The notes below the pieces were generated by a model, which saw nothing but the letters and a program-made list of their open reading frames with translations, did not search any database and was not told where the DNA came from. From Tubulanus polymorphus (lineage: Eukaryota > Animalia > Nemertea): a stretch of DNA of 64,000 bases. Location: assembly GCF_964204645.1 (NCBI RefSeq), contig NC_134025.1, positions 7,626,001 to 7,690,000 of the forward strand. Reading direction: 5' to 3'. Below, in pieces: positions 3,272 through 28,500 of this stretch. The position numbers were made by a program, and so were the translations under genes. Position 1 is the first letter of the stretch. Each line of letters opens with the position of its first letter.

Positions 3272-3368
3272 ATCCTCCCTCGGCAGGGATTCGTACCTGG
3301 TGGCATCACTTCTGTACCGTGGCAATCTCAGGATGCCATCAGGTTCGAATCCATGCCGGGGGAGGATG
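3272..3368. mobile_element. Short MITE with tRNA B-box-like inverted ends (copy 1)
   Basis: Arms 3272-3307 and 3332-3367 are reverse complements at 32/36 positions and contain GGTTCGAATCC. Flanks gtccatagt/ggccattgt look like a decayed 9-bp TSD. Homologous to 15048-15349. Confidence 0.7.
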
Positions 3369-4400
3369 GGCCATTGTCACTGGAAAAATGAACCACTTCT
3401 CAAACAGGACTGGAAGTTGCTTTTTCGAACTCGCAAATGTTTTCATGGTTTCGACGATTAATACGTTGTGCACTAATTACGACTTATGAAGACAATGACT
3501 TAGACTTAGTTGGGACTCAGAATTAAATGAGACGATATAAGTTATGCCCGAAGTTATGTGAAAGACTTTCAGTGACCGAGTTTGATTGTATTGCACTGTA
3601 TAAATGCGATTCTTCCAAGAACGCAGACACTAGCCATGTCTGTTTCTGTAGTTCTGTCGATGAATAATTCAAAATAGATTCTTTATATTTTACCTACCAG
3701 TACACATGTGTGTATGAATGATAAATGAAAAAGTGGCTGCTGAGCAGCTTATTTTTTATGAACCAAATCCATGTTTCAGATGAGGCAATGTCAAACGTTT
3801 CTATCAAGATTTGTCAGTTCAAATGAGGGTTTCAGAAAATACGAGGTTTGTAAACGATTTTAGAAGCTATTGAAGACTTGTTGAGCGTTTTCTGAGCAAT
3901 CACTCCTATGGGATCCTGCTGCAAATGAAAAACACGTGATATTCAATATCGTGTGCGTGCTCGAGATGTTATCTGTTTGGTACTTGACACGCAGTGCATC
4001 CATTATAAATGAGTGTGATTTTAAGCGGCGTTTGATCTAGACTATGTGACTTCTAGCCAAATATAAGCTACGTCATACTTAAAAACGAAAGGAATGCTCC
4101 ATTTGATAAATAGCATTTTTGAAAAATGACCTTTGAATGATGTCTAACATTATAGAATCAAAATTTCTAAGAAATATTCATGAATGTTTCGAGGAAATCC
4201 CCAGCTACACTAAATCAGACATTATACATACAGACATGTATAAAAGCAAATGATAGGTCTACATTTTGTTCGCTTGGTATATGTTCCATATGGCAATCCA
4301 TTTACGTAACACTGAAAAACTTGTATATATGTGTGTATGTGTTTCAGGGTACAAGATTCAGATACAAAATTCAGAATAAAAACTTAGAACCCGTGGAACC

Positions 4401-5416: not shown

Positions 5417-6369
5417 CTGCAATAACCAAAACAAATTAATACAAGACAAATATGTTTTCAAGACTAAACGATAAAAGTCTGATAAAAGATAAAAACTATA
5501 AAAAACAAATAAATTATCTTATAACTAGATGATAATTTCTTCGGAAAAATGTGGTTTTCTCTGGGGGTAATATTTACCTTCAGCCGTCTCAGCCGTGAAA
5601 CATTCACCAACGTGACCGAAAATGTACTGCTCGGTTACAACAAATAGTATGAGAAAGTAACAGCAGAACATTTTTAATTTCATCCCCGAGAACATTGTGA
5701 AGAGCGTTCGATCTTTGGTTCTATCTTCAAAAAACCATGGAATGATTGAAAAGAAAAAGTAGAATAAGATAATAGAAAATAGACTAATTCAGTTTCTTCA
5801 CAGTGTTAAGTTAGACATTTCAGAGTAATTTTTAATTATGGTTAACGACACCTTAGTAAAAATTAAAATCCACAACTATGAAACTGAATCTGCATAAATC
5901 GCCTGGGAGTGGCTCTGTGCCTTCTGGAACAGTGATAATCCAGTTCTGTTCGATTCCGTTAGTCGCTAATTAAAAAGAATTGCCCACAATAATTCCAACA
6001 TATGGCACTTTTCACTTGACCCTTTAATCATTGTCGAGAGCAGAAAGTGGTGTAATTGGACAATTTCTATTGCAAACATATTGTAGATCGTGTAGAATTT
6101 TTCATGGAATAGTTCACAGAATTAGTGAAGTTAATGAGGAAGGATATGGCAATTCAAGTACCACAGGAAACACCCGCGGGTACCGAAACCCATCGTGAAG
6201 AAATTCAACTTAAACGGTATTAGATTGTCATTACTAGAATGAAAAATCTTTGAATGTTTATGATGCAATGTTTTGGGATGTATTAGTGTATGTCGGGGTA
6301 GCATTCGAGGAACTACATCAAACAAGGAACCGCTAGAGGGTGTCATTTTCAACCTTCACGGCGGCGGCC

Positions 6370-6408
6370 GCGCACCTAGAGCGGCGCTGCGCGCCGCTCT
6401 AGGTGCGC
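6370..6408. repeat. Perfect 18-bp GC-rich hairpin
   Basis: GCGCACCTAGAGCGGCGC (6370-6387), TGC loop, GCGCCGCTCTAGGTGCGC (6391-6408). Confidence 0.9.
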
Positions 6409-6473
6409 TGCGCTACGCTGTCACTTCCTGGTTCCGCTGCGGAATTTAAACATTTAACTAAAAGATCCACAGG

Positions 6474-6569
6474 GACTTGAAAAAAGGATTTTGACCCCAG
6501 TATCCTAGGTACTATATATAAAAAGACAGTACCTAGGATACTGAGGTCAAAATCGTTTTGTGTCAAGTC
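6474..6569. repeat. Long inverted repeat with an AT-rich (TATATAAAA) loop
   Basis: GATTTTGACCcCAGTATCCTAGGTACT versus AGTACCTAGGATACTGaGGTCAAAATC (27 bp, 1 mismatch), extended outward by GACTTGA/TCAAGTC. Confidence 0.85.
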
Positions 6570-7322
6570 AGTGTAAAGATCTGCTCTGTCATGTTTTTCA
6601 CGTCACTTGTCTTATTCAACAAAATTGGCTAATTTTTTGCATGTCCTAATTTACTGCATGTTTAGGTCCTATCATTCAAAATCATCGATATCATCTCCAA
6701 AACCAAAGGGACGTTGAACCAGTCCAAAGTCTTTGAGAAATAGACACTGGCCCAAGTGTCTATTCGTAACTTTTGGAGCCTACCAACTTACCCCGGTATG
6801 GTATGTAGAGTAAATTACTGGGAGTTTTTCGGACGGGATTGTCTTACTTGTTTTGAGGGATGCTCAGATCCAGGGTTTCAACCTCTTTTCGGACCAGCCC
6901 TTTTGAAAATCTCACTACAAAAGATTCCACCCTACAAATGATCTCAGCATATGACAAAAGTCTGCAGCTTAGTGGTGTGTCGCGCCTGCCCCACTCAGTG
7001 CGATTGGACACTTTTCACAACGATAAAATGCCCTTGTCATATAAAGTGAACCCCCACCCCATTTTTCCCAGCCTGGATCTGCCCCTGGGATGCTTATATA
7101 GTCACATGTCACATTGCTTGGTTTTCACAAGCATTTCTTACTTACTTGCTGGACAGATAGGAGATATTTATTTTTTGCTGGAAACTGCTCGTGAGAGTGT
7201 GTACATCTGTTATTGTGAAATATGCTGTCTGGGTGATCATGCACATTAATTTTTTTCTTAATTGAGTTGGCCCCCGGGTTAAAGTTAATACCACAGTCTG
7301 GGCCTGTGTGTGTATCAGTAAT

Positions 7323-7614
7323 CATGGGCGTCGCTAGGGGGATTCGGTAGTTAAAACGAACCCCCTTTTTTTGAATTTTCAAACGTCGACGAACGTCGGC
7401 TCATGGTTTGCATTTGCTAAATTAGCAAAATAAAATCAATACATGCAAAGACAAAGTAAACGGGAACCAGTCTACCTATAAACGGGAACCAGTCTATCTA
7501 TCGGCCTCAGATTGCACCAGAACATGCCTGCTTGCACAAAATTTTCTGGGGAGGACACCCAGACCCCCTCTATTCCTAAAAATGAACTCCAAAAAAATCC
7601 TGGTGACGCCCATC
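7323..7614. mobile_element. MITE with ATGGGCGTCGCTAGG / CCTGGTGACGCCCAT terminal inverted repeats
   Basis: Imperfect ~15-bp TIRs and an internal tandem duplication (aaacgggaaccagtctac/t). TSD unclear. Confidence 0.6.
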
Positions 7615-9617
7615 ATAATAGACATTTATGTATTGTCCACGTTTTTATTAGCAGGGAAGATTGCTGTTTTCGTATTGAGTCGACCACCAGTGCCTCCTAG
7701 GGTTATAAGTAAATGGATTGGCAGATAATATGTTACCAGGTTATGATGATTCATGGCTGAACTGGCGAGCATAAAGAAGAAATGCTGTGAACAGTTATGA
7801 GTATTCATTATTACATATTTATACAAAATCACATAAAATTTTGATAATTGACATACATTTTTTTATCTACTTGCAGCATACTGACAGAAAACTACAAACA
7901 GAGAAACAGAGTGGGAACCAATAAGACTTATCACGCTGTTAACTCTTCTTCTGAACCGTATCTGAACCGTATCGAGTGATTATAAGACCGTTGGGTGGGA
8001 CTCCCTTTTGATGTGTTGATTCAACTAAAACAGTTAACCACGGTTAACTCGACACTTAGGGGATTGTGATAAAAGTGACGACTTATCCAGATGATCACTT
8101 ACATTTGGCAGATTTGATTATAAATACATATTAGAAATACAGATTGTGACTTGAGTATTTATGTTTCAAACATCACTTTGACTTATCATTATGAGCACTT
8201 AACCAAATTTGACTTTGGATTGACTTCCTTGTACATCTCTGGAGTTATAAACATAATGATTATCAAACTGTAATCTTGGTTGATGCTTTATAATGGCTGA
8301 TTAATTTGGGGACTGGTATGATAATGATGAACTTTTAATTAGTATCTGGTTAACGTTAAAATATGAGGTTATGTAGCTGGTAGATGTGTATATAGCAGTA
8401 TACAGCATGTATCATCCAACTGCCTTATTTCTATTTTTTTTTACAAGTGGCATGTATAGATTGAATATGTGATTGAAAAATGAAAATAAAGCTTGAATAG
8501 TAATAAAGTCTTTGTATGGAAATTTTCGTTTTATCTATCTGATTCCAATGTGGATTTTGTTTCTAAGGAAATGGAGATTGCAGGTGATCCCAGCCCTTCA
8601 CACATTCTATATTTATTACATTTGATCTCGCATAACAATTTTATACGACGGAATTTATCAAAATCAAACTACGAAGTTTCGGCTGTTGACTCATCGGCGA
8701 AAAATCCAGACCAGACTTGCAGGATATAGAGGCCATTTTCTCCCATACCGTATTAATTCGTTTACAGACCTACTTTAATCAATGCAGGAACTAGAGCTGC
8801 CAGTAGCCGATGCCTGAATGTGGCCCTGCTTTAAAATCATTGAATTTCCCATCTAACAATCTTCCATCTAACAATTTTAATAAAAAATGCACATTTTTAT
8901 TACATATATTAATAAATATTTGTCAAAAACATATTGTGTAATTTTTATCTAATTATGATTATTGACGTCAGGGGAATTTTTGTGAACTGAGTTCAGGTTT
9001 GAAATTTCGAAAAGATAAAAATTGTAGAGAATTTACTCAACCAAAAAGTTCAAAGAAACCTATGGCTGGCCCATCAAGTACCGTAAAATGCAACGTTTAC
9101 CAACACTTACTTGTCAGGATCACTGGGGATAAGGCCATAAGGGTTATCACTGTAAACATGGCAGAAAAGATTCATGCGTCTTTTAAATTAATCTGAAAAA
9201 AGCGCCTAGATCGTGATAAACCCCACTCCGTGATCGACATGAAGAAATGACAAGTTGTTTTTGGAGAAATAAAAAGATATTGCATTTGCAGCATATTGAA
9301 CATAAACAAATTGACAATTTTGATGGTTTTACGAGAGTGTTGGTTATTCAAATGAAATGGTCACTTGGAAATACAATGAAAGATCACCAAGTTTTTGGGA
9401 GTACCCTTTTCAAAGCGCTCTTTCGAATTGTGCACAGGCAAAACTAGGCGCTGGGAACCTCGATCCTGGCGACATGGTAGGGAGGTCAAGTAGAATTGTT
9501 GCTAAAAGGTGTTTTTATGATCTTTAGCAATGTGAAGACATTTCTAGCTATGGTATAAGCAGCAATTTGTTCTTTTTAGTGCACAATCATAAATGAAACG
9601 GATCCACCTGTACTATG

Positions 9618-9791
9618 CACAGGGGTTCGTATCAGAGTTGTAGGTAATGATAAAACGATAATCTGTTAATGCAATGTCTATAGTATATATAAAATAATAT
9701 AATATATAAAGTTATTTTATATATACTATAGACATTGCATTAACAGATTATCGTTTTTACATAATCTACAACTCTGATACGAACCCCTGTG
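9618..9791. mobile_element. Foldback MITE, hAT-type 8-bp TSD
   Basis: Near-perfect ~80-bp arms CACAGGGGTTCGTATCAGAGTTGTAG.../...CTACAACTCTGATACGAACCCCTGTG with a short AT loop. Flanks gtactatg (9610-9617) and gttctatg (9792-9799). Confidence 0.85.
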
Positions 9792-9851
9792 GTTCTATGG
9801 TTTGAATTTCAGATAATTGCTCGTAGATTCGTAGAAGTACGTGAATAATAT

Positions 9852-9996
9852 GAATAAATTGACCTTAAAATTGTATCTACTTGCACTCCAAATCAAAATG
9901 TAGGGGGTTACCTACTTTGGAGAATTGGGGTTTTTCACCGAGGGGACATTACCTATAGGGGATCTTTAACTAGGTGATTTTTTTTACCCCTAACCC
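9852..9996. mobile_element. Solo degenerate Mutator-type TIR copy
   Basis: Direct similarity to 12451-12593 (aataaattgaccttaaaattgtatcta...tacctacttt...aattgggg). Confidence 0.6.
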
Positions 9997-10208
9997 TTTT
10001 AATTAACTAGTGATTTAAAGAATTGTAGACTGAGTTTAGATAACCGAATTAGATACATCGATTCGTAATATCAATATATAGTGGCCGAGTAATTATTCGT
10101 TATCACCTGGTACGCTTTCCGTGATCATATTGTGTACGTACGTAATTGAAGGAATTACGGGGTCATCTAGATTTAATAAGGTTCAATGTATAATGGCTTG
10201 TAAGCTCT

Positions 10209-10876
10209 GGTTAGCGGTAAAAATCCCCAATTCTTCAGAGTAGGTAAAAATCCCCCTCCTTTTGAATGAAGTGATACAATTTGAGGTAAATTAATTCAGA
10301 TACACATATCCAATTTATTTATATTTTACCGTGGAAAACCATAAGGATATCACGAGCGTACAAACTATAGTATACACTAATTGCATTAAAACTTACAACA
10401 AATTAACAGTTCATTAATACCAAATTAGTACTTTAAGTTATAGCAGTTAATGAAAGGGTTCATCGCACATTTAAAATTTATCGCACTAGCTTGAATCTAA
10501 AGTATTTCAAATTAAAGGTTCATTATTTCTATTAACTCATGGCATCGCACAGCTGAAATACAAGTTAACACGATTTCACAGTTCAAAAATATACCATTTC
10601 AGTTCGAATTGTACGATATAAAGAATAATAAGTTCATTATTCTTATCAATTCTAACAATTTATCTTATTCTAAGAGTTAACTAATTCACCCCAACGAAAG
10701 ATTTCATTGCGCAGTTCAAACATATTTCAATCTCATTGCAAATGAATAAAATTTCAGAAACATTTTGCTTTGAAATGTTCTTGAACATCATTGAAAAGTG
10801 GGGAATTTTACCTACTTTGAATATTTGGGGATTTTTACCTAGAGAATTTTTACAGAGGGGGCTTTTAACTACAACC
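10209..10876. mobile_element. Non-autonomous Mutator (MULE) element
   Basis: Left end GGTTAGCGGTAAAAATCCCC... is inverted relative to right end ...GGGGATTTTTACCT...ACAACC. 9-bp TSD gtaagctct (10200-10208) / gttagctct (10877-10885). Confidence 0.75.
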
Positions 10877-10977
10877 GTTAGCTCTTTGCCTATGCTTACT
10901 TTGAATTACGACAAATTTAAATCGAACTGTTTTCCGCTTGCTGCTTTCAAGTTTTTAATTCCTCACCAATATCCTTT

Positions 10978-11936
10978 GTGAACTTTGCGATGGCACCACC
11001 GCTTTTTTCTCAGGTGTATGTCATCCATGCTCCTTTGGTTGACAATATAACAGTTCCTTTAGTGTACACATTCTTACAGCGGAAGTCAGAAGGTACATAC
11101 GAGGATTTGTTCAATGCCATCAGTGAAAATGTCGATGGTATTGATCCCGATACAGTTATAGTGGACTTTGAGATGTTCATCACGCGTTAAGAGCTGTCTT
11201 CGGCGATGCACTGCAGATTCAGGGTTGTTTTTATCACCTAAGACAATCAACCTGGCGCAAGATACAAGAGCTCGGGATGGCAAATCGGTAAGAAAATGAC
11301 CTTTTTTTAATTTTTAAAATAATTGAATGATTTTGTACAAATTGTTGTTGACTCATTTACTCTTATGTATTCAGGTATCAGAATGAGGACGATTTCAAGT
11401 TATTCTGTGGGCTTGATGGTTTGGCATTTCTTCCCACTGCGGATGTTGTGGCGGGAATGCAACATCTACGAGATGTTGCCCCAGATGGTTGTGATCCTCT
11501 TATTAACTACTTCGATGCGACATATGTTAATGGAACATATAGGGAAAGAAGAATCGGAGAAGAGAATCGACACATAATACGGAGAATTGCTCCGAGATTC
11601 GCACCCGAGAGATGGAACGTAAATCGAGCAACTTTAAACTCTGACCCCAAAACTAATAATGTTTCAGACGGATGGAACAACAGATTCCGCAATTTGATTG
11701 GGCACAAACACCCTTCTATATGGCGCGCCATCCGTACCATTCAAATGGAACAGAGTGTCACAAGCACCAAGATAATGGAAAACGCCATCGGTGGAGTTCC
11801 ACAACGACGGGTTAGCAACATCCATCGTCCGTTACACGAACGATTACAAATACTGTGTCGACAATACAATGATGGACATTTGAATATGGCCGATTTCCTG
11901 CGTGGTGTGGGTCATAACATTCCGCTTGGAAATTAG
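10978..11936 (+). pseudogene. Decayed Mutator (MULE) transposase, C-terminal part, with one intron (~11288-11374)
   Basis: MULE motifs PPLFSQVYVIH, PLVYTFL, IVDFE, GCFYHLRQSTWRKIQELG, LAFLP, YFDATY and TNNVSDGWNNRF...HPSIW. Frameshift after VDFEM, D in place of the usual catalytic E, and 5' truncation. Confidence 0.85.
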
Positions 11937-12450
11937 AATTGATAAACGTTAACTAAAGTAACTTTTAACTTGGCGTACTTTTTGAAAATAAAACTGAACT
12001 GTGCGATGATCTCTTTTTAACTTATATTTTGCGCGATGCAGTACTGTGCGATGTGATTTACAATGTGATGCGATTTTGTACATTAATTAACTTCTAATTT
12101 GTAATACTTTTTAAACTTCAAAATGTAATATCTTTTACCTATTTGATGAGCCATTTTTAACTTGTGATATATTATTTAAGCTGTGCATTATAAATAAACT
12201 TTTAATTTAGAGTGCTTTTTGAAAATTAAAATCATAATATGTTTGAACTGTGCGATTGTTTTCTTTTTAACTTATATTTTGTGCGATACAGTATTAATGA
12301 ACAACCAATTTGTAATTTTTAATGTGATGCGATTTTGTGAATTAATTAACTTCTAATTTTGTATTTTTCATTGAAATGCGATAACTGCTATACATGATAT
12401 TTCTATGTAACGCAATTATAAGGTAAATAATAAATAGAATATATTAATAC

Positions 12451-12593
12451 GAATAAATTGACCTTAAAATTGTATCTAATTTGGACTCCATTCAAAAGGT
12501 GGGGGATTTTTACCTACTTTGAATAATTGGGGATTTTTACCTGGGGGATTTTTACCTGGGGGATTTTTACCTAGGGGATTTTTACCTACAACC
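12451..12593. mobile_element. Right TIR of the MULE, with tandem GGGGATTTTTACCT sub-repeats
   Basis: Several tandem copies of the ~15-bp motif ending in ACAACC. Same terminus family as 10209-10876. Confidence 0.75.
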
Positions 12594-14730
12594 GTTTATT
12601 CATATTCAAAATTATAACAACAAAAACATAATTTTAAGCCAGTGCTTTCAACGAAACATTTGATTCGAATAACTAACAAACTAGTGTATCAAATCTCCAT
12701 GCACTATTCAGTTATATGTTAATTTGATATTTCATGTATAAATTACAAAAAAACTAGCTCATTGTGGGTATTCTTTCGAATATACATACAACGTGCATAG
12801 ATATTTTCTATCTCCTACCCCTATAAGCGTAGCTAGGGCAATCTTTGAAAATTGTGAAATTTAAGTTATTCACTTATCCCTAACAAATCGCACAGCTTTT
12901 CCTCGAATTTCTAGATGATTATTCCTAGTGGCGATGCTCTTGAAACGATAGTTCTTTTGGCAGTCTATACACCATGTTTCATTTGCTTATTGCCAAGTTC
13001 CAGATCCAGAACGTATTTTTTTACAACAAACATAGAGAGAACTTAATTGACAGGAATCGTATCTAGGAATTGCGACGATCTGTATGCAATCTTCTTTGCT
13101 CGTCAGCAACGTACGTAGCCTTGTTACAAAGAATGGCATAAAAACAATTGAAACCAAACTTAATTAATACAAAATACCTTTATTTATGTCATTCATAAAT
13201 GCACTACAAATGATTCGTCTAGAAAATATAAGTAGTGTAATTCAAAAAATAACTAAATTGCTATGCATACTGGAAAGACGATCGTACTTGTGAAACGTAG
13301 CATGTATAGTGTGAGCATATTACAAATATTTAGCAACACTTAATTTCACATATATTCTTTATTGTAAATGCATGTATCAATCTGATAATATCAGTTTTTC
13401 ATTGATGCGAAGTTTAGATGGCAGACGGAAAGGCAGACTTTATTTTACTTTGATTATTTATCGGCAAACACGTTGTTTTGTCTCAATTTTCAGGAAAATC
13501 AGTCGAATTAAAACTGTGAATTACTGTGAGCACCTGTGTGTCTACCATCTTGCTCAATTGATATTTATCACTATTATCATTAAACAAACTTATCAATTAT
13601 CAATATTATAAAATCTGGCGGTTTGACGATACACTCAAACAAGGTAGTAATAGCGTGCAGTAATCGACGAGTAATAGCGATTGATTGCACGAATAGTTTG
13701 TATTTAATTAAATATTAGGCCATCTGACACCAGCTAGCCCAAGGGTAGATATATAGTCGCAGTGACTCAGAAAGTTATTCAGATTTTAAAACTCTCGATA
13801 CATATACACATTAATTTTATATATATTACTCTTTCTATTCGCTGATATTTACAGGTAAGTATTTTAATCTATTTCATTTAGCCAAATTTAGTGTAAACAT
13901 TTGACTAGGCCCAAGTTTTCATACTACGCATATCAAATATTTTGATTTCATGCATCTAAGCCTAAATGAATTAGACTTTTTATTGAGTTATATGATATGT
14001 AGACTAGTTAACTTCAGATCTATTCGAAAACAGAGCTAGATATGTAGTTATAAGTATGAACTGATTTAACATGTTATTGAGCATTTTGACATTTGATAAA
14101 AATAGGATAAAAGATATGGCCAGTACATCTATGTATGTGTCTGAATTATGCTCTATTATCATATAAAATATATCAGTAAACATACAAATGCATATTACAT
14201 CTAAAGGACCAAATTAATATAATAACCATATGTATAATCTCTTTTAAAATGAACATGTCAATTTTACAAGATTCTAATTTTACATCCCTCTGCGTTGACA
14301 TTAAAAAATATATACACAGGAATATTATATACATGTACCTCTTTCTATCCACTGATACTTAGTTCTCTCGAAGCTTATAAAAGACAAAACACAACGGACG
14401 TTTGTTTTGTTGATAAAATTTTCCTAACCCAATACCTACTCTACGTACATTATTTGAATGTTTTCGTTTTCACCAAACAATAAAAAAGAATATGAAAAAC
14501 ATCAGTGATATGTGATTGTCAGAACAGTTCAACATACTTAATATACCAATACAAAATTACTTTGTTTCAGTATCAATGAATTATAATATACAACGTACAT
14601 TGCCACGTATATGAAAAATATTTTGCTCTATGTAAAACACAAAGTCAATTACGAAAAGCATGGATGGAACATACACTTCAATCATGTAACAGTGGAACCT
14701 CGTAATAACGACTATAGATATGGCAATTGA

Positions 14731-17700
14731 TCAGCTTTCAGTGTCTTCATCACTTTCACTTCCCAAAAGAGCATCGGCCAAGCATTCTTCTGCTAGTTCA
14801 TGTGATGTTTGATGGACCTCCATATAGATCTTTATCAGTGTTTCTGGCAACAAAACTCGAAACACATAATCCATGTACTGAAAATATAATTCAAAAGTTT
14901 GGTGAGGTCCGGCTAACAAAGTGTTAAGAGACAACATGCACATTTGCTGAAATGCTTAGCAATCAGACAATTTCAATATTCAATGCCCCCTGTGAACAAA
15001 TTAAGGAATCAATGACATTAAAAATGCAATATATGCAGGTACATCTACATCCTCCCACAGCAGGGATTCGAACCCGATGGCATCGCTTCACTCAGCCACA
15101 CGGCACAAACCCCTGCCACACTTGACCGGGTGTGCAGCTTTGCCACGCGAAAACTTACGGCACCAATCAGATTGCTTGTTGTAGAATCGCGGAGGTAAAT
15201 TTCACGGAACAACTAAGAATGGGAAAACCCGGGATATCTGATTTGCTAATAATGTCATCATCTAAGCTGCCTGGTAGCTGCGCACTCGGTCTAGTGTGGC
15301 AGGGTTTTGTGCCAATGCCATCGGGTACGAACCCTGCCGGGGGAGGATGGAACATCTACTATTAAACAACCCCTGGTGAACATAGCGAGACAAGCATTGA
15401 AGCATATTTAAAACAACCCAAAATATTTTGTCTACACAGAAATGGCTCACTTAAGTGGGTTACATGCGCAATACTTGATATACTAGGGTAAATTACTTAA
15501 AGCTTTACCGGTATATACAAACCTTCGTATCAGTTGGGCAAAACATGTCCATTAATCCCTTTATTATTACATCACATTGCGCATCACTGTACAAAGTGAT
15601 TGGTACTTGCAAGGTCAAGTTACCTGAAATACAGTAAGCAAGGCACATAAACACTTGGTTACCAGGGTATTAGTTACTGGTTATTGTACTTAATTTTCAA
15701 CTTACGCCTGCTCTTTCCGCCATTCTTGTAGTCTTCATGGCGTCGACATTTAGTCTAAAAGTATATATATATAAAATGAGCATTACTGTTGACTACAAGT
15801 AATGAATACTGTGATACATATCAGTCATGGAAGACTAATATAATACCTTAGAGAGATAGTTTTGTACGACACCTGAACACAAAATTAATCGCTAATGACT
15901 GGTATATATGATTATTTTAAGAACACTACCTTTCCCTGGAAAATATTCCTCAAATAGCACTCATTCTGCATAACCAAATAAGTTAATTGCTTATCTTCTA
16001 GCTGCGAAACATCTCTGTAAGTAAAAATGATTCCTTCTTTAGCATTGACTGCTCTTAGACCATTCGGATTAAATACAATAAAGCTTGAGGCAGTTTGATA
16101 CCAGTGTCTAATATCAAAATAATTTTGCTTTACCACTAATGTCAACCCCTGGTATACTGCGCCCACATCAGTGCAGAACGATTTTGGCGGTATAGAGAGT
16201 ATGACACTATAGAGAGTATGGCGGTATATCGGAGGTGTTTTGAGATGTACATGGAGAAAACCTGGCAGTAGGCGGGGAGGGCGGGATATCGGGGTGGACT
16301 GTACATTCATCATGACTACTCACTTCACTGTCTTAATAAGAGTCATCATTCCTTCCACGCCCTGCTTGTGAGCGTTGCTGTCACCCTGATCAGAGCTGAA
16401 ATATTCAGGAATGAGATATTGGTATGAATTAACGTGTGGAAATTGCAAACCATTACAGTTATAGTTTATAGTATGGCTTACCTGTGACTAGCTTTAATCT
16501 TATCAGATATTTGTTGCGCACATTGATCAATATGATGAGTGTCTGCATTCAACTGGAATGTTAAAGAAAAACGATACAATTAATGTGATCACACAGGGGT
16601 TTTATGGATATTACATGATTATTTCACTACATACATAGCATAAAAGCATAGTGTAGCAGAATTAGAAAAATACACTAAGACTAGGGGTGCAGGCCCACTT
16701 TGCCCACTTGGGAGCTGGTTTGAAGTGCTTAACTATCAACTGTCTACCGCAGCATCTGTAAAACTTCCTTAAATAACTGGATTCTGTCTACGGACCGACA
16801 AACTGAACCTTCATAGCCCGCTGGGACTAGTTGGCTAAAAAGCAATGACACAATACCTAGACCGTAAACTGATCACGGGATAATCAAAGAATATGATATA
16901 TGATTTGTTAAGATATCAATAGTGTACTGGTCCATGTGTCTTCCAGACACACAGACACATACGCTAAAGCACCTGCAGAGATTAAAGTAAATACATGTGT
17001 TTCACATTGATAGCGTGTTATAAAAGGCAGAATATGTGCACATACACCAAGATGTAAATATATATATATACCCTTTGACAAATAATACCAACTGTTATTT
17101 TCGAATTTATTTAGACCACTCACATTAAATTAAAAGGTGTGAAAATCAAAACAGAAACCATGTGCATGCGTCACTTGTATACACATGATTTGGTGTGAGC
17201 CAAAAAATACTTACGAATTAGCATCTTAAACTGAAAAATTATGGCAAAGTTTAGCCTCCTATTATGTATATTCATTAACACAACAATTCAAGTCCTTAAA
17301 TAGACCTGGTACTCTAAATGAAGATTTCAAATGAAAAGATCCGATAGGATTGATTTGACAGAATTCACAAAAAAATGCTCTACCTCACCAACAACGCGAT
17401 CCATGATGTGCCTGGTTTCAGTAGAAATGGTTTCATCACCCCTAAAATGGAAAACCATTCTCAATTAAATACACTTTCATAGTTGTATATACCATTAAAT
17501 CCATCATATAAGCCATCATAAAATCTAACTATATTACCAGTATATTGAGAACGTGTTATAAAAGACAGAATATGTGCAGATACACCATATATATATATAT
17601 ATAATTCTCACCACTCACTTGAGATAAATTTCAGATAAATTTCATCTATCTACAAATCAATCAATCGGATGATTACTTACAGGATATTGTGAAGAGCACA

Positions 17701-20280
17701 CTTTTTTCCTGCACTCTTGCAGCAGTCTCTGTGCATATAGTTTTCACACTTCGGTGCCCTTGTCTTCTTGCACTTGGAAACACACATACAATATCTATTT
17801 AGAGGAGCTGTCATAGAATAAAACAACATCATTCATCAGTAATTACAGTAAAACCTCTTTTATGCAAGTGTGAATAATTCTAATGAATCAGTGCACTTTT
17901 GGAAACAGTTAATTCCGTTAGTACTTACATTTAGTTCCTAAAAGCTTCTTTTGCTTCATCCTTGTCAGGGATGTCAGCATACTAATATCCACCCACAACA
18001 GAGAATCTTTGACCAGGACTTGGTACTTTCTTCCCATTTTACCGACCTTTAGGATGACTCCTTTATGGCACTTTGGCCCAGTCTTACTATAAAGTTTTGT
18101 CTTTTTCATTGCTGTTGCCTGATAATGATAAACTGATTTAGAACTCATTGCACGTACTAGGGGAAGCAGATTTTTTGGAAGTTTGTAAAATATAGGGAGG
18201 GGGTTGAAAATTGGTAAATTCTTTAATAATTGTACATAAAATGTAACTAGAGCTACACTATGAAGGCTCTATAAATATAGCTGTGGCGGCTATCTTGGAT
18301 AATCTACACGAGTAAAAACAATACAGCACATCTTCCATCCATTATTCACCTACCATGTAATCAGAAAATTGGTTCAAAACAGAAGTAGACTTTAGAGCAG
18401 GAGCATTCTCTTCCTGACAGATGGCAATACCCCTAAGCCAGTAATGTTTATTGAATACACAATGTGTATAAATGGAAGATAAAAGCATTTCAAGCTTTAT
18501 TTCCACACTGGATGAAAGAATGCAGATTTAACAAGTACTTACATTCACCAAAACACGGTGTCCAGGTTCATACTGGGAACAAGGGTATCTATTCTTATGT
18601 CCCTTGACCATTGCAGCATTATATACAGTTGAAAGTGCTTCAGCTGCTTTTCGCTTTGAAGCGGATTCATTCTCCCAGGCAGTGAGCTTGAAATTTTAAA
18701 GTACAAAAGTTTCATGTGTTATATAACACATCATCAACATGTATTATTACTAGTCACATCTGAAGTAGAGTAAAGCCTCTGTATAGTGAACGCCATCGGG
18801 ACCAAGCAAAGTGTTCACTATGGGGAGGGTTAGGTAATGATGTGACATGGGACGACACCAGGTATGTTCCTATGAATCCACAACTACACAGCCAAACACT
18901 AAATTGATCTAAATCATGACTGCAATACACTTTCATTCAAGTAGGATAACTTATCGCATCAATTATCCAAGTAGTTTAGAGAGATAGTTTGGTACAACAC
19001 CTGAGCAGAATGTGTGATCGAAGTGACTAAATAGCCAGGTTGGCACATACCATAACGGACCATCTCTACTAGAAAAAGTGCTCACTGTCCACTATAGGTA
19101 GGTCATGATCTTGATGTAATACTGCCTCTATGACTGTGTTAACGCATAAGTACTGATGCATGTATTTTAGGTTTTGGGACCACACATAGGGTGTTCATTA
19201 TAGGAGGTGTTCACTATAGGGAGGTATTCATGCAAGGGGTTTTACTGTATTCACATTTGAAGAAGCCACATCTGAAGTATTTTCTTCATCTACGGAGTCT
19301 GCTTTCGTCATCTGACCATTTTGAAGGCCTTCACCTTGATTGTGCTTCCTGGCAAAAAATACTTCGAAAGGAGTCATCTTATCGGCTGAAAAAGAAAATT
19401 AGTATTTTATTTTCATAGCAGATGAATTGATAGGAAAAGCCTGGTTAAACCAGACATACGTAACGAATACCCTTCGGCCAGTGAGTGAGTCATGTTCAGA
19501 TCACAAAATTGTAATAGGGTACATATTCCTGACAAGTTTCATACACATACAAAAATCATTAAAAAGTGTAGATTATAGAGCAAGAACGAGTTCCATAATG
19601 CCTATTTCACATCACCCTGCCCAGATGGAGACAGGTGATGACAATACCGCATGAAGCTTATTGCCAAGGGGTATATCTATCTTTGGACCCCTAAAATTTG
19701 AAAAGGTACAATACACCCGGTTCCAGCGCGGTAGATATTAAGGTGTAGTATCTTCTATACTGCAAATTTGCAGTTTAGAAATAACAGAGGAGTAGGGCTA
19801 TTATTATGATACCTAGGATAACAATAAGGTTTCTAACAAAGGTAGGCAGAATACCCTAATTACATACAAAATGCTTTATGTAATCGTTGATTCATAATTC
19901 TCTGGAGCTCAGGAATGTGCGCAACCCAATTTGTCTCATCATCTCTCCCGAGTAGGTACCGAAGCATCTTCTTCCAGCTCCCATGTGATCTTTCGGACTG
20001 TAAAGAACGGTAAAAACATTGTTAAATTTGTAATACAAAAACTACTTCCCAATTTTTTCAATCAAAATATAATCATTACTTTTCCTTGTGATTGGGGATG
20101 CCTAGGCGAACCAAATATATGCTTTATTTTTGCAGTCTTCAAAAATGAATCAAACTCTCCTTTGAATTCCGTTCCATTATCGGTCTGTACGTATTGCGGG
20201 TTGCCGAACTCACAGAATATATTTTTTGTCACTTCGGCCACCGTTTTCGATGTTTTGTTCTGAATTGGGCGTAACCAAAG
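14731..20280 (-). CDS. 5'-truncated 13-exon Ginger/KRBA2-like DDE integrase gene with an SHI-like zinc finger and a PWWP3A/MUM1-C-terminal-like domain (~501 aa recoverable)
   Basis: Exons 20280-20080, 19997-19868, 19385-19255, 18686-18543, 18118-17929, 17807-17681, 17441-17384, 16552-16482, 16395-16324, 16014-15930, 15754-15706, 15623-15523 and 14877-14731. All introns are GT-AG and phase-compatible, with no internal stop. Integrase motifs LWLRP, FGNPQYVQTDNGTEFKGEF, SPRHPQSQGK|SERSH and TPFEVFFAR. The middle exons (17441-16324) are supported by splice phase only. Confidence 0.8.
15048..15349. mobile_element. Longer MITE with tRNA-like inverted arms, inside the last intron of the integrase gene
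   Basis: CATCCTCCC...GGGATTCGAACCCGATGGCAT at the left and its inverse at the right, with arms of about 80-90 bp. 9-bp TSD gtacatcta (15039-15047) / gaacatcta (15350-15358). Confidence 0.8.
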
Positions 20281-23200
20281 GTGTACCCCTTAACGATTAA
20301 CCAAACCCTCATCACATTTGCCCGATGAGCCTTGGCCCCGGGACCCCCCCTAACAGGTAAATGGACTCCTGGTGGCTTTACCTGTGGTCCGATTGGTGCT
20401 AAATTTAACAAGCACCTGCAGGGTGTACCCCTTAACGATTAACCAAACCCTCATCACATTTGCCCGATGAGTCTTGGCCCCGGGCCCAGGGACCCCCCTA
20501 ACAGGTAAATGGACTCCTAGTGGCTTTACCTGTGGTCCGATTAGTGCTAAATTTAACAAGCACCTGCAGGGTGTACCCCTTAACGATTAACCAAACCCTC
20601 ATCACATTTGCCCGATGAGTCTTGGCCCCGGGCCCAGGGACCCCCCTAACAGGTAAATGGACTCCTAGTGGCTTTACCTGTGGTCCGATTAGTGCTAAAT
20701 TTAACAAGCACCTGCAGGGTGTACCCCTTAACGATTAACCAAACCCTCATCACATTTGCCCGATGAGTCTTGGCCCCGGGCCCAGGGACCCCCCTAACAG
20801 GTAAATGGACTCCTGGTGGCTTTACCTGTGGTTCGATTAGTGCTAAATTTAACAAGCACCTGCAGGGTGTACCCCTTAACGATTAACCAAACCCTCATCA
20901 CATTTGCCCGATGAGTCTTGGCCCCGAGCCCAGGGACCCCCCTAAATGGACTCCTAGTGGCTTTACCTGTGGTCCGATTAGTGCTAAATTTAACAAGCAC
21001 CTACACGGTGTACCCCTTAACGATTAACCAAACCCTCATCACATTTGCCCGATGAGTCTTGGCCCCGAGCCCAGGGACCCCCCTAACAGGTAAATGGACT
21101 CCTAGTGGCTTTACCTGTGGTCCGATTAGTGCTAAATTTAACAAGCACCTACACGGTGTACCCCTTAACGATTAACCAAACCCTCATCACATTTGCCCGA
21201 TGAGTCTTGGCCCCGAGCCCAGGGACCCCCCTAACAGGTAAATGGACTCCTAGTGGCTTTACCTGTGGTCCGATTAGTGCTAAATTCAACAGGCACCTGC
21301 ACGGTGTACCCCTTAACGATTAACCAAACCCTCATCACATTTGCCCGATGAGTCTTGGCCCCGAGCCCAGGGACCCCCCTAACAGGTAAATGGACTCCTA
21401 GTGGCTTTACCTGTGGTCCGATTAGTGCTAAATTTAACAAGCACCTACACGGTGTACCCCTTAACGATTAACCAAACCCTCATCACATTTGCCCGATGAG
21501 TCTTGGCCCCGAGCCCAGGGAACCCCCTAACAGGTAAATGGACTCCTAGTGGCTTTACCTGTGGTCCGATTGGTGCTAAATTTAACAGGCACCTGCAGGG
21601 TGTACCCCTTAACGATTAACCAAACCCTCATCACATTTGCCCGATGAGTCTTGGCCCCGAGCCCAGGGAACCCCCTAACAGGTAAATGGACTCCTAGTGG
21701 CTTTACCTGTGGTCCGATTGGTGCTAAATTTAACAGGCACCTGCACGGTGCACCCCTTAACGATTAACCAAACCCTCATCACATTTGCCCGATGAGTCTT
21801 GGCCCCGGGCCCAGGGACCCCCCTAACAGGTAAATGGACTCCTAGTGGCTTTACCTGTGGTCCGATTAGTGCTAAATTTAACAAGCACCTGCAGGGTGTA
21901 CCCCTTAACGATTAACCAAACCCTCATCACATTTGCCCGATGAGTCTTGGCCCCGGGCCCAGGGACCCCCCTAACAGGTAAATGGACTCCTAGTGGCTTT
22001 ACCTGTGGTCCGATTAGTGCTAAATTTAACAAGCACCTGCAGGGTGTACCCCTTAACGATTAACCAAACCCTCATCACATTTGCCCGATGAGTCTTGGCC
22101 CCGGGCCCAGGGACCCCCCTAACAGGTAAATGGACTCCTGGTGGCTTTACCTGTGGTTCGATTAGTGCTAAATTTAACAAGCACCTGCAGGGTGTACCCC
22201 TTAACGATTAACCAAACCCTCATCACATTTGCCCGATGAGTCTTGGCCCCGAGCCCAGGGACCCCCCTAAATGGACTCCTAGTGGCTTTACCTGTGGTCC
22301 GATTAGTGCTAAATTTAACAAGCACCTACACGGTGTACCCCTTAACGATTAACCAAACCCTCATCACATTTGCCCGATGAGTCTTGGCCCCGAGCCCAGG
22401 GACCCCCCTAACAGGTAAATGGACTCCTAGTGGCTTTACCTGTGGTCCGATTAGTGCTAAATTTAACAAGCACCTACACGGTGTACCCCTTAACGATTAA
22501 CCAAACCCTCATCACATTTGCCCGATGAGTCTTGGCCCCGAGCCCAGGGACCCCCCTAACAGGTAAATGGACTCCTAGTGGCTTTACCTGTGGTCCGATT
22601 AGTGCTAAATTCAACAGGCACCTGCACGGTGTACCCCTTAACGATTAACCAAACCCTCATCACATTTGCCCGATGAGTCTTGGCCCCGAGCCCAGGGACC
22701 CCCCTAACAGGTAAATGGACTCCTAGTGGCTTTACCTGTGGTCCGATTAGTGCTAAATTTAACAAGCACCTACACGGTGTACCCCTTAACGATTAACCAA
22801 ACCCTCATCACATTTGCCCGATGAGTCTTGGCCCCGAGCCCAGGGAACCCCCTAACAGGTAAATGGACTCCTAGTGGCTTTACCTGTGGTCCGATTGGTG
22901 CTAAATTTAACAGGCACCTGCAGGGTGTACCCCTTAACGATTAACCAAACCCTCATCACATTTGCCCGATGAGTCTTGGCCCCGAGCCCAGGGAACCCCC
23001 TAACAGGTAAATGGACTCCTAGTGGCTTTACCTGTGGTCCGATTGGTGCTAAATTTAACAGGCACCTGCACGGTGCACCCCTTAACGATTAACCAAACCC
23101 TCATCACATTTGCCCGATGAGTCTTGGCCCCGGGCCCAGGGACCCCCCTAACAGGTAAATGGACTCCTAGTGGCTTTACCTGTGGTCCGATTGGTGCTAA

Positions 23201-24400
23201 ATTTAACAGGCACCTGCAGGGTGTACCCCTTAACGATTAACCAAACCCTCATCACATTTGCCCGATGAGTCTTGGCCCCGAGCCCAGGGAACCCCCTAAC
23301 AGGTAAATGGACTCCTAGTGGCTTTACCTGTGGTCCGATTGGTGCTAAATTTAACAGGCACCTACACGGTGTACCCCTTAACGATTAACCAAACCCTCAT
23401 CACATTTGCCCGATGAGTCTTGGCCCCGAGCCCAGGGAACCCCCTAACAGGTAAATGGACTCCTAGTGGCTTTACCTGTGGTCCGATTGGTGCTAAATTT
23501 AACAGGCACCTGCACGGTGCACCCCTTAACGATTAACCAAACCCTCATCACATTTGCCCGATGAGTCTTGGCCCCGGGCCCAGGGACCCCCCTAACAGGT
23601 AAATGGACTCCTGGTGGCTTTACCTGTGGTCCGATTAGTGCTAAATTTAACAAGCACCTGCAGGGTGTACCCCTTAACGATTAACCAAACCCTCATCACA
23701 TTTGCCCGATGAGTCTTGGCCCCAGGCCCAGGGACCCCCCTAACAGGTAAATGGACTCCTGGTGGCTTTACCTGTGGTCCGATTAGTGCTAAATTTAACA
23801 AGCACCTGCAGGGTGTACCCCTTAACGATTAACCAAACCCTCATCACATTTGCCCGATGAGTCTTGGCCCCGGGCCCAGGGACCCCCCTAACAGGTAAAT
23901 GGACTCCTGGTGGCTTTACCTGTGGTCTGATTAGTGCTAAATTTAACAAGCACCTGCAGGGTGTACCCCTTAACGATTAACCAAACCCTCATCACATTTG
24001 CCCGATGAGTCTTGGCCCCGGGACCCCCCCCTAACAGGTAAATGGACTCCTGGTGGCTTTACCTGTGGTCCGATTAGTGCTAAATTTAACAAGCACCTGC
24101 AGGGTGTACCCCTTAACGATTAACCAAACCCTCATCACATTTGCCCGATGAGTCTTGGCCCTGGGCCCAGGGACCGCCCTAACAGGTAAATGGACTCCTG
24201 GTGGCTTTACCTGTGGTCCGATTGGTGCTACATTCAACAGGCACCTGCACGGTGCACCCCTTAACGATTAACCAAACCCTCATCACATTTGCCCGATGAG
24301 TCTTGGCCCCGGCCCCCCTAACAGGTAAATGGACTCCTGGTGGCTTTACAATACAACCCTGGGGACTATTCTTGGCCCCGAGTCCAGGGACCCCCTCTAA
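20281..24400. repeat. Tandem satellite-like array, 148-bp unit, ~28 copies, with a duplicated 9-unit (1325-bp) block
   Basis: TAACAGGTAAATGGACTCC recurs every 148 bp from ~20350 to ~24319. Diagnostic variants recur 1325 bp apart: GGTTCGATT at 20830 and 22155, and the 7-bp deletion at ~20942 and ~22267. Confidence 0.97.
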
Positions 24401-25249
24401 GACCCAAAGTGCCTTCATATTTGGCCTGATCAGCACCCAATTTTTTGGGGATATTTTGCTTAATCTTTTCAACACATACCTCAAATTTGGTCTTAATTAA
24501 ATACCACCCGTGAAACTGTGCAGTCTCAATATAGGCCTACCATCATTTTATATCCATTGATTTTTCACATGGCATTGAAGGATTGTCAAAAAGTCTTCAT
24601 TTTCTCATGTTGAAGAGAAAAGGTTTGAAATTCTTGAGATGTTTCCTGTTTCCATGCTTATAAACCATATTTTTGATGATTTGAGATTAATTTAAAACGT
24701 TGGGCACGTGAACAAATTGTTAAAATTGATTTAGGCATAGTTCATTAAGTATTCTCTGCTCTGATTCAGATTGAAAGAAATTGATTCAATGACGACTTTG
24801 CCTTGGTATCGGTACTATCAAATTAAGACCAAATTGATTTAGGGCTCCTATTAATTATGGCATGTTTCAAAGTTCAAGAGAATAAATCAATCAGTGGAAC
24901 CTTGCTAAAACCAACTGGGATAGGCCGAATATAGAATTTTGTCCAAATTAAGACAATTTGATTCATCCATGGCTTGTAGCCTAGGGCGCTGTAAGTACAT
25001 TCAATTCATGCAGCAAAGATTTCCGCATGATTTTGCGCGTTGTTACACAACCTCATTCGTCACGGAACTTTGATCCAGGTAAAACCTCCCTTCTGGATCC
25101 CCTAAATTCGAGCACTGTGGAAGCATAAAAATCTAGCTTGAAATTAAGGCCTAAGCTCATCCTATCATCATTTTTTGAGTGCATTTTTCTCGCATTTTTT
25201 CGATATTTACAGTTCGATTGGCAGCCATTACTCCTACTGATGAAAGGAA

Positions 25250-25289
25250 CGCCATCTATTGAATGAGCGATTGACCCGCCATCTACCGG
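25250..25289 (-). promoter_or_regulatory. Two tandem CTCF-like motifs upstream of THADA
   Basis: CGCCATCTATTG (25250-25261) and CGCCATCTACCGG (25277-25289) resemble the reverse complement of the CTCF core (CCNNNAGATGGCG). Motif match only. Confidence 0.35.
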
Positions 25290-25526
25290 TTCCTCGATTC
25301 AAGCGGTTCCCTGAATACTACTCCAACAAGTGTACGATATGAAATATAACCAGTGGCCCGCGAGTATGGATAACGGAGTGCGAATTTGCAAACACTATGT
25401 ATTGTCCACCCTTAAATCATTGGCGCGCAATTTCAAGGTCGCGAGGATCCGAAAATAAATTTAAATCAACTTTTGCATTTGAAATTTATTTATTTATACT
25501 CCAACCAAGACATACATTTCGAATAC

Positions 25527-28500
25527 ATGTACTTGATGGACGACGAAGTTTTAGACAAAATCGATGAGATAATATCGAATTCAAGGTAGAGCGAAAAGCT
25601 GACACTCATGTTGAAGTAGAACTAATAAGTCTAAAAGTAAAACTAAAGAACTGAAAGAACTAAAAAGACGAGACGTATTTATATTTCCTGTCTGCCTGCC
25701 TGCTAAAAAAAAATCTAATTAGTTTTCCTTCTTCTTTCAATGCAGAGGATCCAAACTTGTAAAACTTACAGCAAATGAGTTTAAAATTCTGGAAGGAGTT
25801 TGGATAACATTTCAAAAAGATGGAATATTTTATCATGAAGATGCATCCTTGTTAAATGCATCAGCAGGATGGATGAGGTTTTTAAAGCAACTCGTTGAAT
25901 TAGCTATTCTGTGTAGTTCTCACACCAAGGCTCTACACATATTAGAAAAGGTGATTTGATTTTTAATAGGCATACCTAATTGAATTGATGAAAGCATATT
26001 GGTTGAAATTGATATCTATCATCTTCTTGTACTGGAATTAATTTTAAATTATCAATACCTAGGCCTAGGCCCATATTAATTTGATGCAATTCTTTCAGAT
26101 TACCAGTAAATGCTCATCTCTAGACAGTGATGGTGTGATATTTGCTATCAAAGAAAATTTGATTCACACTAAAGAAATATTGAAATGTAAGAGCGATCTA
26201 TAAACAAATATTACAAGTTTAATTTCAAACCAGTCTCAGTTGCTAAAGCTGTAGGCCCTATTTCGTTTAATTCAATTTTGAGGCTAAGATAAAGTAAGGA
26301 CTGGTGTTGAAATGTGTATGTATCTTGTAGGGTCACCTATATTAGATGTCAGCAATACTTGGAGGACTGCTTTGAAATCTCATTTCCCTGGCTTTCTCAT
26401 CAAACTAGAGGAAGAGATGAATGGAGAAATGACTCGGTCTTGGGGAGAACAGCAAAGTCTTCTTACTTGTGTGAAGGTAGGATATCCACAATTTTTATTT
26501 AGAAATTTATTCCAGAGATTTTTACATATGATACTCATATCTTTTTGCAGCTATGTTTACAAGTTCTTAACTTCTACCAGAGTGAATTCAAGGAAATTAA
26601 CTTCAATCATGTAACTTCAAGTGAATTCGGTGCATGTTTCGCTAAACTTATGCAGTATCTTATTGATATTCTCTCTGATGCTGTAAGTTTTTCATTTGCA
26701 TTTAATAAAGAGAGATGCACACAAGAAAATAACGTTTATTGTAAGAAAGTATGTATACGTTTCAGGTTTATACTCCAGGAGATGTGCATCTGCTTGCTGG
26801 ATCTGCGGTGGGTCATTTTTTGAACACACTTCCAGTTGAACAAGGAATAAATTTCTATTTGAATTTCGATCATTCATTAGGTGAGAATTATACATGTGTC
26901 GTAATATATTGTAGAGAAACATAGGCAGCAGTAATCAAAGGAAAAAAAAATTTTCTTTTCAGGTAAATCGTCAAAGCTTTCATTTGATTTGATGATGCAG
27001 GGTATAACTTCATCAGAAGACACAGCAAATTTGCAATATAACAAAGTGTGCCGATTTGGTGAATTGTGTCTTATATATGGCACGCTTTCTTCAGCATCAT
27101 CAGATATACTTCTAAATGACATTCGCTCAGATATAAACACCATAACAGCATACAAGACGTGTATACTTACTGAAGCCTTTCCGAAGATTGTCAAGTTCTG
27201 TTACACAAAGCATGTTTACCATGCATTTCAAACTTTACTCTTATGGTTTAAAACAAATTTAAAATACCTTGATCTGATGCTGCAGAGGACTCACAATTTA
27301 TCAGATAAGGCACTAGAATGTACTAGAAAGATTTTTGGTGCTGATAGTCATTTTGTGCAGAACACTACTAAAGCAATTTGGAATCACTGGGACAGCTCCG
27401 TATCTGGTGTGCCTGAATTGACATCCCAAGTGTTCACATGCTTATTGGATATTCATAAGAAAGAAATGGATTCCTATTCAATGAGTTGTGATGAATTATT
27501 TGATCATTTGCTGGAAACTCTACTGCAGATGCCATGGCAAATTAAGGGCAAGCATCGCATGCTCATTTGTTTAGTAAAATATGTTGGTATCAAAAAGGTG
27601 AGGTCTTAATCAGAAAAATTTTAAATAGATACTTTGATTTTCGTTAAATCCTTGTTCTGATTAATACCAGTAATTTGTTTAGTTGCTGGTTCTCGTTGAA
27701 AATACTACCGTAATAAGAGATGCCATAATTAAAGGGCAAGCATTGTCTACTATGTTTGTTATTGAAGGTCTTGCTGATAGATCCAAATTTGCCTAAAGAA
27801 CTATTCAAATGCCAGGCTGTAAATTTCATGGCTTCAACATCTGCAGAACTGTACAAGGAACTTATAAAACTGCAAAGAAATACGGGCCATGTTTCTGAAT
27901 GGTCTGAGACATGGCTGGATGTCATAATCGAAACTTTGATTAGCAGAAACAGGTATTTCATTCATTTGCAAACATTTACTACATTGAAGTAGATTATACT
28001 GAAATTTTCTGTGATTATTTTTGAATTTCTAGTGTTCTTCGTCACAATTGTTCCCAGTTCTGCGTGAAGTATACATTAAAGGTTTTCCCTGAAGCTTTCG
28101 ACATACTTATTCAAACCATCATTCAGAGACGACTTGAAACTGGATCTAATGATTATTTGAAATTGCACTCCAGCTACCTCTATGCATGGGTGATAGTGAT
28201 GAAATTAGCAAGACAACAGCAAATCATTGCTCTTAATGTATGTGGACGTGGTTGACGATGGGTAATCATCTACCTTTTGCAAAGCCTTTTATTTCATAAG
28301 AATTAACTGATTATCAGAAATTCTATTTCAGGGTGAAGAACCTTTACGTGAAGCTCTTTATCATACTGATGATGATATAAGAGCTGATGCCTTCCTTTTG
28401 TTAACTGTGACAAAAAAAAAATCAGGTAACTGGTATACAAAGAAAGATACTACTGGTACTGCTATTATTACATGTATTCAAGCTTTATACACTATCCTGG

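Follow-up and report, generated by a model that had tools for sequence, protein, structure and literature searches.

In a 64,000-bp stretch of contig NC_134025.1 of the nemertean Tubulanus polymorphus (hereafter the window), a coding tail that recalls the C-terminus of PWWP3A/MUM1 (EXPAND1) lies downstream of an integrase. The first-pass annotation of this DNA had read the two as one fused protein, and had proposed that the tail is a transposon accessory module, either captured by the element or donated to host genes, that might help to target integration. The questions raised by this locus are what kind of element it is, whether the tail is joined to the integrase, from which gene and in which direction it moved, and whether the element makes use of it.

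Ends, transposase and family placement of the element

The locus is occupied by a transposon that spans positions 6291-25328 of the window, 19,038 bp in all (Table 1). Its terminal inverted repeats (TIRs) are about 50 bp long, start with TGTCG and TGTTG, and agree at 37 of 50 letters; the pairing is imperfect (33/45 letters), and the runner-up place in the window reaches 24/45. Both flanks carry AGTGTA, a word counted 18 times in the 64,000 bases. A target duplication of 4 or 5 bp was rejected, since the flanks disagree at those lengths, and the value of 6 bp comes from one insertion only. The sister copy, represented by P0001 (a 185-aa NCBI model), sits on another contig, so that a second, near-identical copy exists; the two are 99% identical.

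Table 1 Features of the transposon and its surroundings, in window coordinates
Feature	Position	Strand	Remarks
Left target-site duplication AGTGTA	6285..6290	.	Identical 6-mer at both flanks
Left TIR	6291..6340	+	TGT start
Nested MULE-like element	10216..12541	+	57-nt inverted arms, 93% complementary; MULE E 0.0029, under cut-off
Exon O, final captured exon, with stop codon	14731..14877	-	Joint skips 645; PF20886 E 0.041 alone; 65% to host P0002
Exon N, captured	15523..15623	-	X4 joints; P0002 homology
Exon M, captured	15706..15754	-	Near-invariant Arg-His and Gly-Gly positions
Exon L, captured	15930..16014	-	Acceptor 16014 from X4 joint; P0002 homology
Exon K, linker	16324..16395	-	X4 joints
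Exon J, linker	16482..16552	-	8 codons in, stop of the transposase frame that includes exon F
Exon G, two reading frames	17389..17441	-	ATG at 17436 opens a 190-aa frame finishing in the captured domain
Exon F, 127 nt, frame switch	17681..17807	-	Cys/His cluster in transposase frame
Transposase exons	17929..20281	-	E (18118-17929), D (18686-18543), C (19385-19255)
Transposase exon B	19868..19997	-	Catalytic Glu region
Transposase exon A, remaining part	20080..20281	-	Second Asp region
148-bp tandem array, 27.7 copies	20280..24349	.	Abuts exon A in place of the transposase 5' part
Right TIR	25279..25328	-	TGT start on minus strand
Right target-site duplication AGTGTA	25329..25334	.	Identical 6-mer at both flanks

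Four public runs (X1-X4) contain the stretch, and none of them bears an RNA label on record. In X1, contigs within the element have depths of 86-103 and the flank contig starting at 25329 has a depth of 38.5; both the contig boundary and the depth step coincide with the end of the right TIR, in a test that covers the right end and the window from 9000 on, and in which depth is no copy number. The flank contig extends 24 letters beyond 25329 with sequence unlike the element. These letters possibly represent the empty insertion site, in which case the insertion may be polymorphic. The next gene begins a few hundred bases downstream of the element.

The transposase lies upstream of the tail domain on the same strand. 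Exon A matches the integrase core (rve, E 1.3e-9), and only exons A and B match the integrase-core profile; exon A has no cover in X4 and the A-B intron no joint, and joints B-C, C-D, D-E and E-F are all present there. Nothing 5' of exon A in the window matches the core profile, and an X1 contig (depth 97) follows positions 19592-20281 and then continues with 435 other letters. As read here, this copy lacks the 5' part of its transposase and, with it, the region of the first catalytic Asp; an H2C2 zinc finger, expected before the core in Ginger2/TDD, would fall within that missing part. In the metagenomic relatives of exon A (14 loci), only the core was matched. The units of the 148-bp array are 96% alike and include an internal higher-order duplication of ~1.3 kb. 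Further out, a short ATG-started stretch on the minus strand (24900-24975), noticed by eye, may be a broken first transposase exon; X1 contigs differ from the window by 12 gaps in 24440-24974.

By eye, the core is nearest to Ginger2-2_CGi, Ginger2-3_CGi and Ginger2-2_NV among the sequences in the supplement of PMC10045372, and differs from IS3EU/GingerRoot. Animal Ginger2 elements have, according to PMC2836005, TGTNR ends, TIRs of 50-180 bp and a 4-bp duplication; for Ginger2/TDD, the duplication is given as 4-5 bp in PMC2836005 and PMC10045372 and as 6 bp in PMC6839031. The present element has the DDE core, the TGTNR ends and TIRs within the 45-300 bp of Ginger2/TDD, and departs from the 4- or 5-bp duplication of that group. 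With the elements of PMC2836005 it shares the ends, the ~50-bp TIR and, by eye, the likeness of the core; it differs from those described there in its 6-bp instead of 4-bp duplication, its size (19 kb against 2.7-6.7 kb) and its captured host exons. We call it Ginger2-like and not a proven member, the core having been compared by eye. The 6-bp duplication would fit IS3EU/GingerRoot, which was rejected for its ends (TG..CA here, rarely allowed, instead of TA) and its core, dissimilar by eye. A Polinton/Maverick was rejected since the ends are TGT and not AG..TC, no DNA polymerase gene is present and the longest frame of the element has 194 aa (in the MULE part). The intron-rich gene, the TIR ends and the lack of long ORFs also speak against an LTR retrotransposon or a Polinton.

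Captured exons and the frame set by exon F

The four peptides on which the first-pass annotation had based the C-terminal domain are present, as exons L, M, N and O of the minus strand (Table 1), with GT-AG introns and compatible phases; their joints are backed by X4 contigs and NCBI models. We take X4 to be RNA, because its contigs skip introns exactly and those of X1-X3 do not, with a processed DNA copy as the alternative. X4 contigs bear variants and thus represent the element family, not surely this locus. Introns 16323-16015, 15705-15624 and 15522-14878 are skipped exactly, and 10 of the 12 modelled introns are skipped cleanly in this run; the exceptions are A-B, for which no joint was seen, and L-M (15929-15755), which X4 holds only in an altered form. 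NCBI models P0001 and P0003 use the L-M intron, and the sequence of the host protein P0002 runs on unbroken over this joint. Likeness to the host protein begins in the last third of exon K (residue ~52 of P0001). X4 contig depth over the exons is about 190-320, a measure that does not rank genes. Two candidate exons, H (16972-16857) and I (16808-16748), were rejected since X4 joints skip both, and so was a longer exon L from 16107, the added part of which is skipped by an X4 joint. The last intron harbours a small high-copy inverted-repeat element (15048-15350; X1 depth >20,000 in that bin), a relative of which lies at 3272-3369.

Whether the integrase and the domain form one protein depends on exon F. 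When it is included (X4 depth 124), the transposase reading frame crosses a Cys/His cluster and meets a stop after 8 codons of exon J, which leaves the captured domain in another frame, opened by the ATG at 17436 (190 aa, the frame of P0001). When it is skipped, the two frames join. A single X4 contig (depth 73) joins a point within exon E to exon G and keeps the fused frame; its short side measures 29 letters, and 8 letters in it are absent from the window. The NCBI model P0003 reaches the fused frame through an acceptor at 17794, inside exon F, which is not seen among the X4 joints. The proposed fusion thus stands in part: both pieces share a strand and are in frame if exon F is skipped or acceptor 17794 is used, but the better-covered path (depth 124 against 73) stops before the domain. 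A fusion may exist as a minor form, from a variant copy, and is not the plain reading of the locus. Exon F has no Pfam match, and we take the spacing of its Cys and His residues to recall SHI/STY-type zinc fingers.

Kinship of the tail domain and its likely donor gene

In P0001, the only Pfam family at E<=1 is PF20886, the C-terminal domain of PWWP3A/B (E 6.5e-5, 23.3 bits, profile positions 14-123 of 141). The cut-off of this family is 27 bits, and both P0001 (23.3) and P0003 (19.8) fall below it. A search of 1.84 billion representatives returned 206 proteins at E<=0.001, of which the best 150 were examined. Two of the 67 relatives in one scan clear the cut-off (P0064, 28.4 bits; P0096, 28.3 bits), and none does in two other scans (63 and 22 relatives). 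We accept the kinship despite the score below cut-off, since P0064 and P0096 are themselves homologous to P0001 (E 7.8e-11 and 8e-8) and pass. Profile comparison thus confirmed the captured domain as a remote homolog of the PWWP3A/B C-terminal domain, and the likeness pointed out in the first-pass annotation is real. Among 82 aligned relatives, PF20886 is matched by 45 and RTC4 by 31 at E<=0.05. The homology to the PWWP3A/PWWP3B (PF20886) and RTC4-like (PF14474) tails is remote and extends over ~110 of the 141 PF20886 profile positions; unlike PWWP3A/B, the domain of the element stays below the cut-off and goes without a PWWP part, and its nearest relatives are the tails of invertebrate SLX4IP-like proteins. 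No PWWP family was found in the scanned exons of the element, in P0001-P0003 or in the scanned relatives.

The predicted model of the domain consists of helices throughout; confidence is high for residues 52-180 (mean pLDDT 85.7), and in residues 61-180 pLDDT is mostly 96-98. Among the near-invariant positions of the domain are a Gly, an Arg-His pair, a Leu and a helix motif, Tyr-Val-Leu-Pro-Glu. Foldseek found no match at E<=0.001 in the PDB or among viral folds, the best VIA-align hit (Vpx; Z 5.1, rmsd 3.3, 66 aligned) lies within noise, and the ESM Atlas gave no usable match. The tail-domain profile matched none of 177,635 PDB sequences, the 408-aa human SLX4IP chain 9qed_C included. No Rfam match was found. 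A profile search for longer proteins, a weak test restricted to lengths of 948-2705, found none.

The closest relative outside the element is the worm's own. P0002 (LOC141911569), a protein of 536 aa, is 73% identical to the element over the domain, and is sister to the two element copies with 100/98 and 100/99 support (trees of 34 and 135 rows, which left out 16 of 151 rows as too short and in which bootstraps have not fully settled). Its last ~135 residues are the sole part found in the window. At its other end, P0002 carries an SLX4IP-type (UPF0492-type) N-terminal domain, detected at E 2.1e-12 with a profile built without P0002; this domain was not found in the six frames of the window (best E 0.61). 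No closer donor appeared among the 150 best of the 206 matches or in a further search for longer proteins, in protein libraries that collapse close relatives and may hold few nemerteans. Protein comparison and both trees thus trace the tail of the element to the worm's SLX4IP-like gene, not to a PWWP3A gene, and a PWWP3A-type origin falls away.

The family of the donor is broad. The domain forms the end of the protein in 144 of 151 relatives; the UPF0492-type N-terminal domain accompanies it in 40 of the 151, and in 38 of the 67 with at least 380 aa. In the starfish protein P0028, only the N-terminal 220 residues match human SLX4IP (9qed_C, E 7e-10). Hosts include two choanoflagellates, a coral, an annelid, a brachiopod, molluscs, a tick, insects and echinoderms, from names looked up for 20 of the 150 best matches, 14 of them with a named cluster member. 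Other partners of the domain are MBD (tick), a UCH deubiquitinase, C2H2 fingers and CXXC plus WW (among P0077, P0078, P0116, P0146 and P0071); the survey of co-occurring domains that the first-pass annotation had suggested yielded these and the SLX4IP-type head, and neither PWWP nor an integrase family. One choanoflagellate member shows a weak DUF5891 match. The invertebrate SLX4IP-like proteins (P0002, P0004-P0040 and others) have a long low-complexity linker followed by the conserved folded tail. According to PMC12804970, the C-terminal half of human SLX4IP is disordered, and its XPF-binding part is the N-domain. The donor family thus shares its N-terminal domain with human SLX4IP (9qed chain C; UPF0492), whereas the human protein has no match to the tail profile and the element carries the tail only.

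The direction of transfer was likely from host to transposon, with the parent gene known at the protein level. We draw this from three observations: the domain is widespread in host genes, the other relatives are without an integrase, and the element copies nest beside P0002. The integrase-core profile matches none of 178 relatives (best E 0.34), and the transposase frame is matched by 1 of 151 proteins, P0003, which is likely the NCBI model of this very locus. The two routes left open by the first-pass annotation can thus be told apart. Capture agrees with an SLX4IP-like piece inside an element bounded by TIRs and a duplication, with P0002 as its sister. That the domain was instead born in a transposon and given to host genes such as PWWP3A is scarcely credible, given that it ends host proteins from choanoflagellates, coral, annelid, brachiopod and molluscs to arthropods and echinoderms, in 144 of 151 cases as noted, that more than half of the long ones bear an SLX4IP-type head, and that the element copies group with the host gene of the same species.

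A passenger or a working part

The pattern of change in the domain differs with age. Over 118 columns, element and host differ at 32, of which 14 fall on the element side, 15 on the host side and 3 are unclear. Of the 36 well-conserved columns, a single one changed on the element side (p 0.014 by permutation; 0.019 hypergeometric), and the domain profile scores element and host alike (161 bits each). Neutral drift that spares the frame and the splice sites has a chance of 0.16, 0.10 and 0.035 for 14, 17 and 24 changes, insertions and deletions not counted. Among variants seen between sister copies in the 190-aa frame, 5 of 6 are non-synonymous, and in the X4 contig with the greatest depth over exons K-L-M (316) the altered L-M joint reads into two stops, letters as reported by the tool and possibly an alignment artefact. 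The older divergence looks selected and the recent variants neutral; the old conservation may predate the capture and stem from a host paralog or a related species. The domain is most likely a passenger.

We therefore favour, with a probability of about 60%, a Ginger2-like, 19-kb cut-and-paste transposon that captured four and a half SLX4IP-like 3' exons in the manner of a Pack-TIR and carries them as a likely passenger. The ends, the duplication, the exon structure, the kinship, the second copy and the splice paths are observed; for the capture we infer the following steps. A template switch during repair or replication, as in the models of PMC8277862, would have copied the host 3' exons with their introns to a place downstream of the transposase, so that they would now form the 3' end of its transcript. 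Exon F would then set the frame: with it, the transposase would end in exon J, and the internal ATG would be the only source of the domain; without it, a fusion would result. The element would have kept moving; this copy, whose transposase would have lost its 5' half where the tandem array now stands, would need a partner enzyme to move.

The domain may instead be kept as a working accessory, with the exon-F-skipping fusion or the free domain engaging SLX4IP-like partners and aiding repair or insertion placement. The retained conserved columns, the near-equal counts of change (14 and 15), the confident predicted fold and the in-frame path at depth 73 point that way, as do the extra C-terminal domains of Ginger1 transposases, listed as OTU, Ulp1 or PHD tails in PMC2836005. 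We consider it unlikely, as the arrangement is known from one species, none of 178 other proteins has an integrase, 5 of 6 recent variants alter the protein and the deepest contig appears to contain stops; the fused joint comes from a single contig, the short side of which has 29 letters and which includes 8 letters foreign to the window, and the XPF-binding N-domain, as delimited in PMC12804970, was not captured. A bolder version, in which a Ginger2 transposon recruited the SLX4IP tail, a cassette exon switches between a plain transposase and a fusion engaging repair or chromatin partners, and the tail connects invertebrate SLX4IP with vertebrate PWWP3A/B and fungal Rtc4-like proteins, seems to us more doubtful still. 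PWWP3A/EXPAND1 acts with 53BP1 at breaks. The idea that the tail helps to target integration finds no support in the sequences compared, since the tail comes without the PWWP part that reads chromatin, and the N-domain with which SLX4IP binds XPF was left behind.

A recent capture is another reading: its source would be a diverged paralog, or the ortholog in a related nemertean that later passed on the element, and the conservation would have been earned in a host gene. Two host genes would show what both branches show here, changes of like number (14 and 15) and like restraint; the 99% identity of the element copies and the neutral look of recent variants also agree with a recent capture. It is nonetheless an improbable course, P0002 being the closest donor among the best 150 of 206 matches and in the longer-protein search, albeit in libraries that may hold few nemerteans. 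Far less probable is a chimeric gene kept by the host, with a duplicated SLX4IP-like tail on a transposon promoter and useful to the worm. The X4 depth of about 190-320 over the exons and the broken transposase of this copy would suit it; against it, copies differ between runs, the deepest contig contains stops, and the X1 flank contig passes 25329 with 24 non-element letters, as an empty site would.

A passenger captured in this way has precedents: capture of genes by TIR elements is known in animals (PMC8277862) and in GingerRoot of clubmoss (PMC6839031). As in Pack-TIRs, a host piece lies inside TIRs with a target duplication and has its parent elsewhere, here known from its protein alone. 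With the animal multicopy Pack-TIRs of PMC8277862 (e.g. Ssk-FB4), the element shares a host piece in a mobile TIR element and a chimeric transcript. The Pack-TIRs of that paper belong for the most part to hAT and Tc1/mariner, and the median size of their captured pieces is 224 bp, whereas the element described here has, behind its own transposase and on the spliced transcript of that gene, four and a half coding exons together with their introns. The word "Ginger" is absent from its main text, and the Pack-TIR lists of the supplement may hold Ginger cases. GingerRoot (PMC6839031) likewise combines an integrase-type transposase, a 6-bp duplication, intron-bearing fragments and frequent loss of the DDE region; it differs in its IS3EU-like ends, mostly TA, its core motif (by eye, PMC10045372) and its clubmoss host. 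In a literature lacking most subscription papers and Repbase entries, no paper that we found describes coding exons captured by a Ginger2 element; in one lacking most subscription papers, none linked the SLX4IP, PWWP3A and RTC4 tails; and no title or abstract start in the SLX4IP literature searched concerned the invertebrate tail domain. What is new here is the extension of Pack-type capture to animal Ginger2-like elements, with a multi-exon piece on the transposase transcript. Captured exons in this position represent a raw stage of exon shuffling towards transposase-host fusion genes, and the invertebrate SLX4IP-like tail, related to the unstudied PWWP3A/B and RTC4-like tails, offers a target for a search for binding partners.

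The surroundings hold further features. Within the transposon, the MULE-like element nested in its left arm has an interrupted transposase, with a further related end at 9846-9982, and a palindrome at 9618-9791 consists of two 87-nt arms, without spacer and 92% complementary. On the plus strand, an open frame of 362 aa at 1416-2501 encodes a charged, likely coiled or disordered protein that matches no Pfam family significantly; a multi-exon gene at ~25700-34000, also on the plus strand, presumably resembles THADA; and a single 557-aa frame at 39810-41480 of the same strand encodes a BTB-BACK-Kelch protein.
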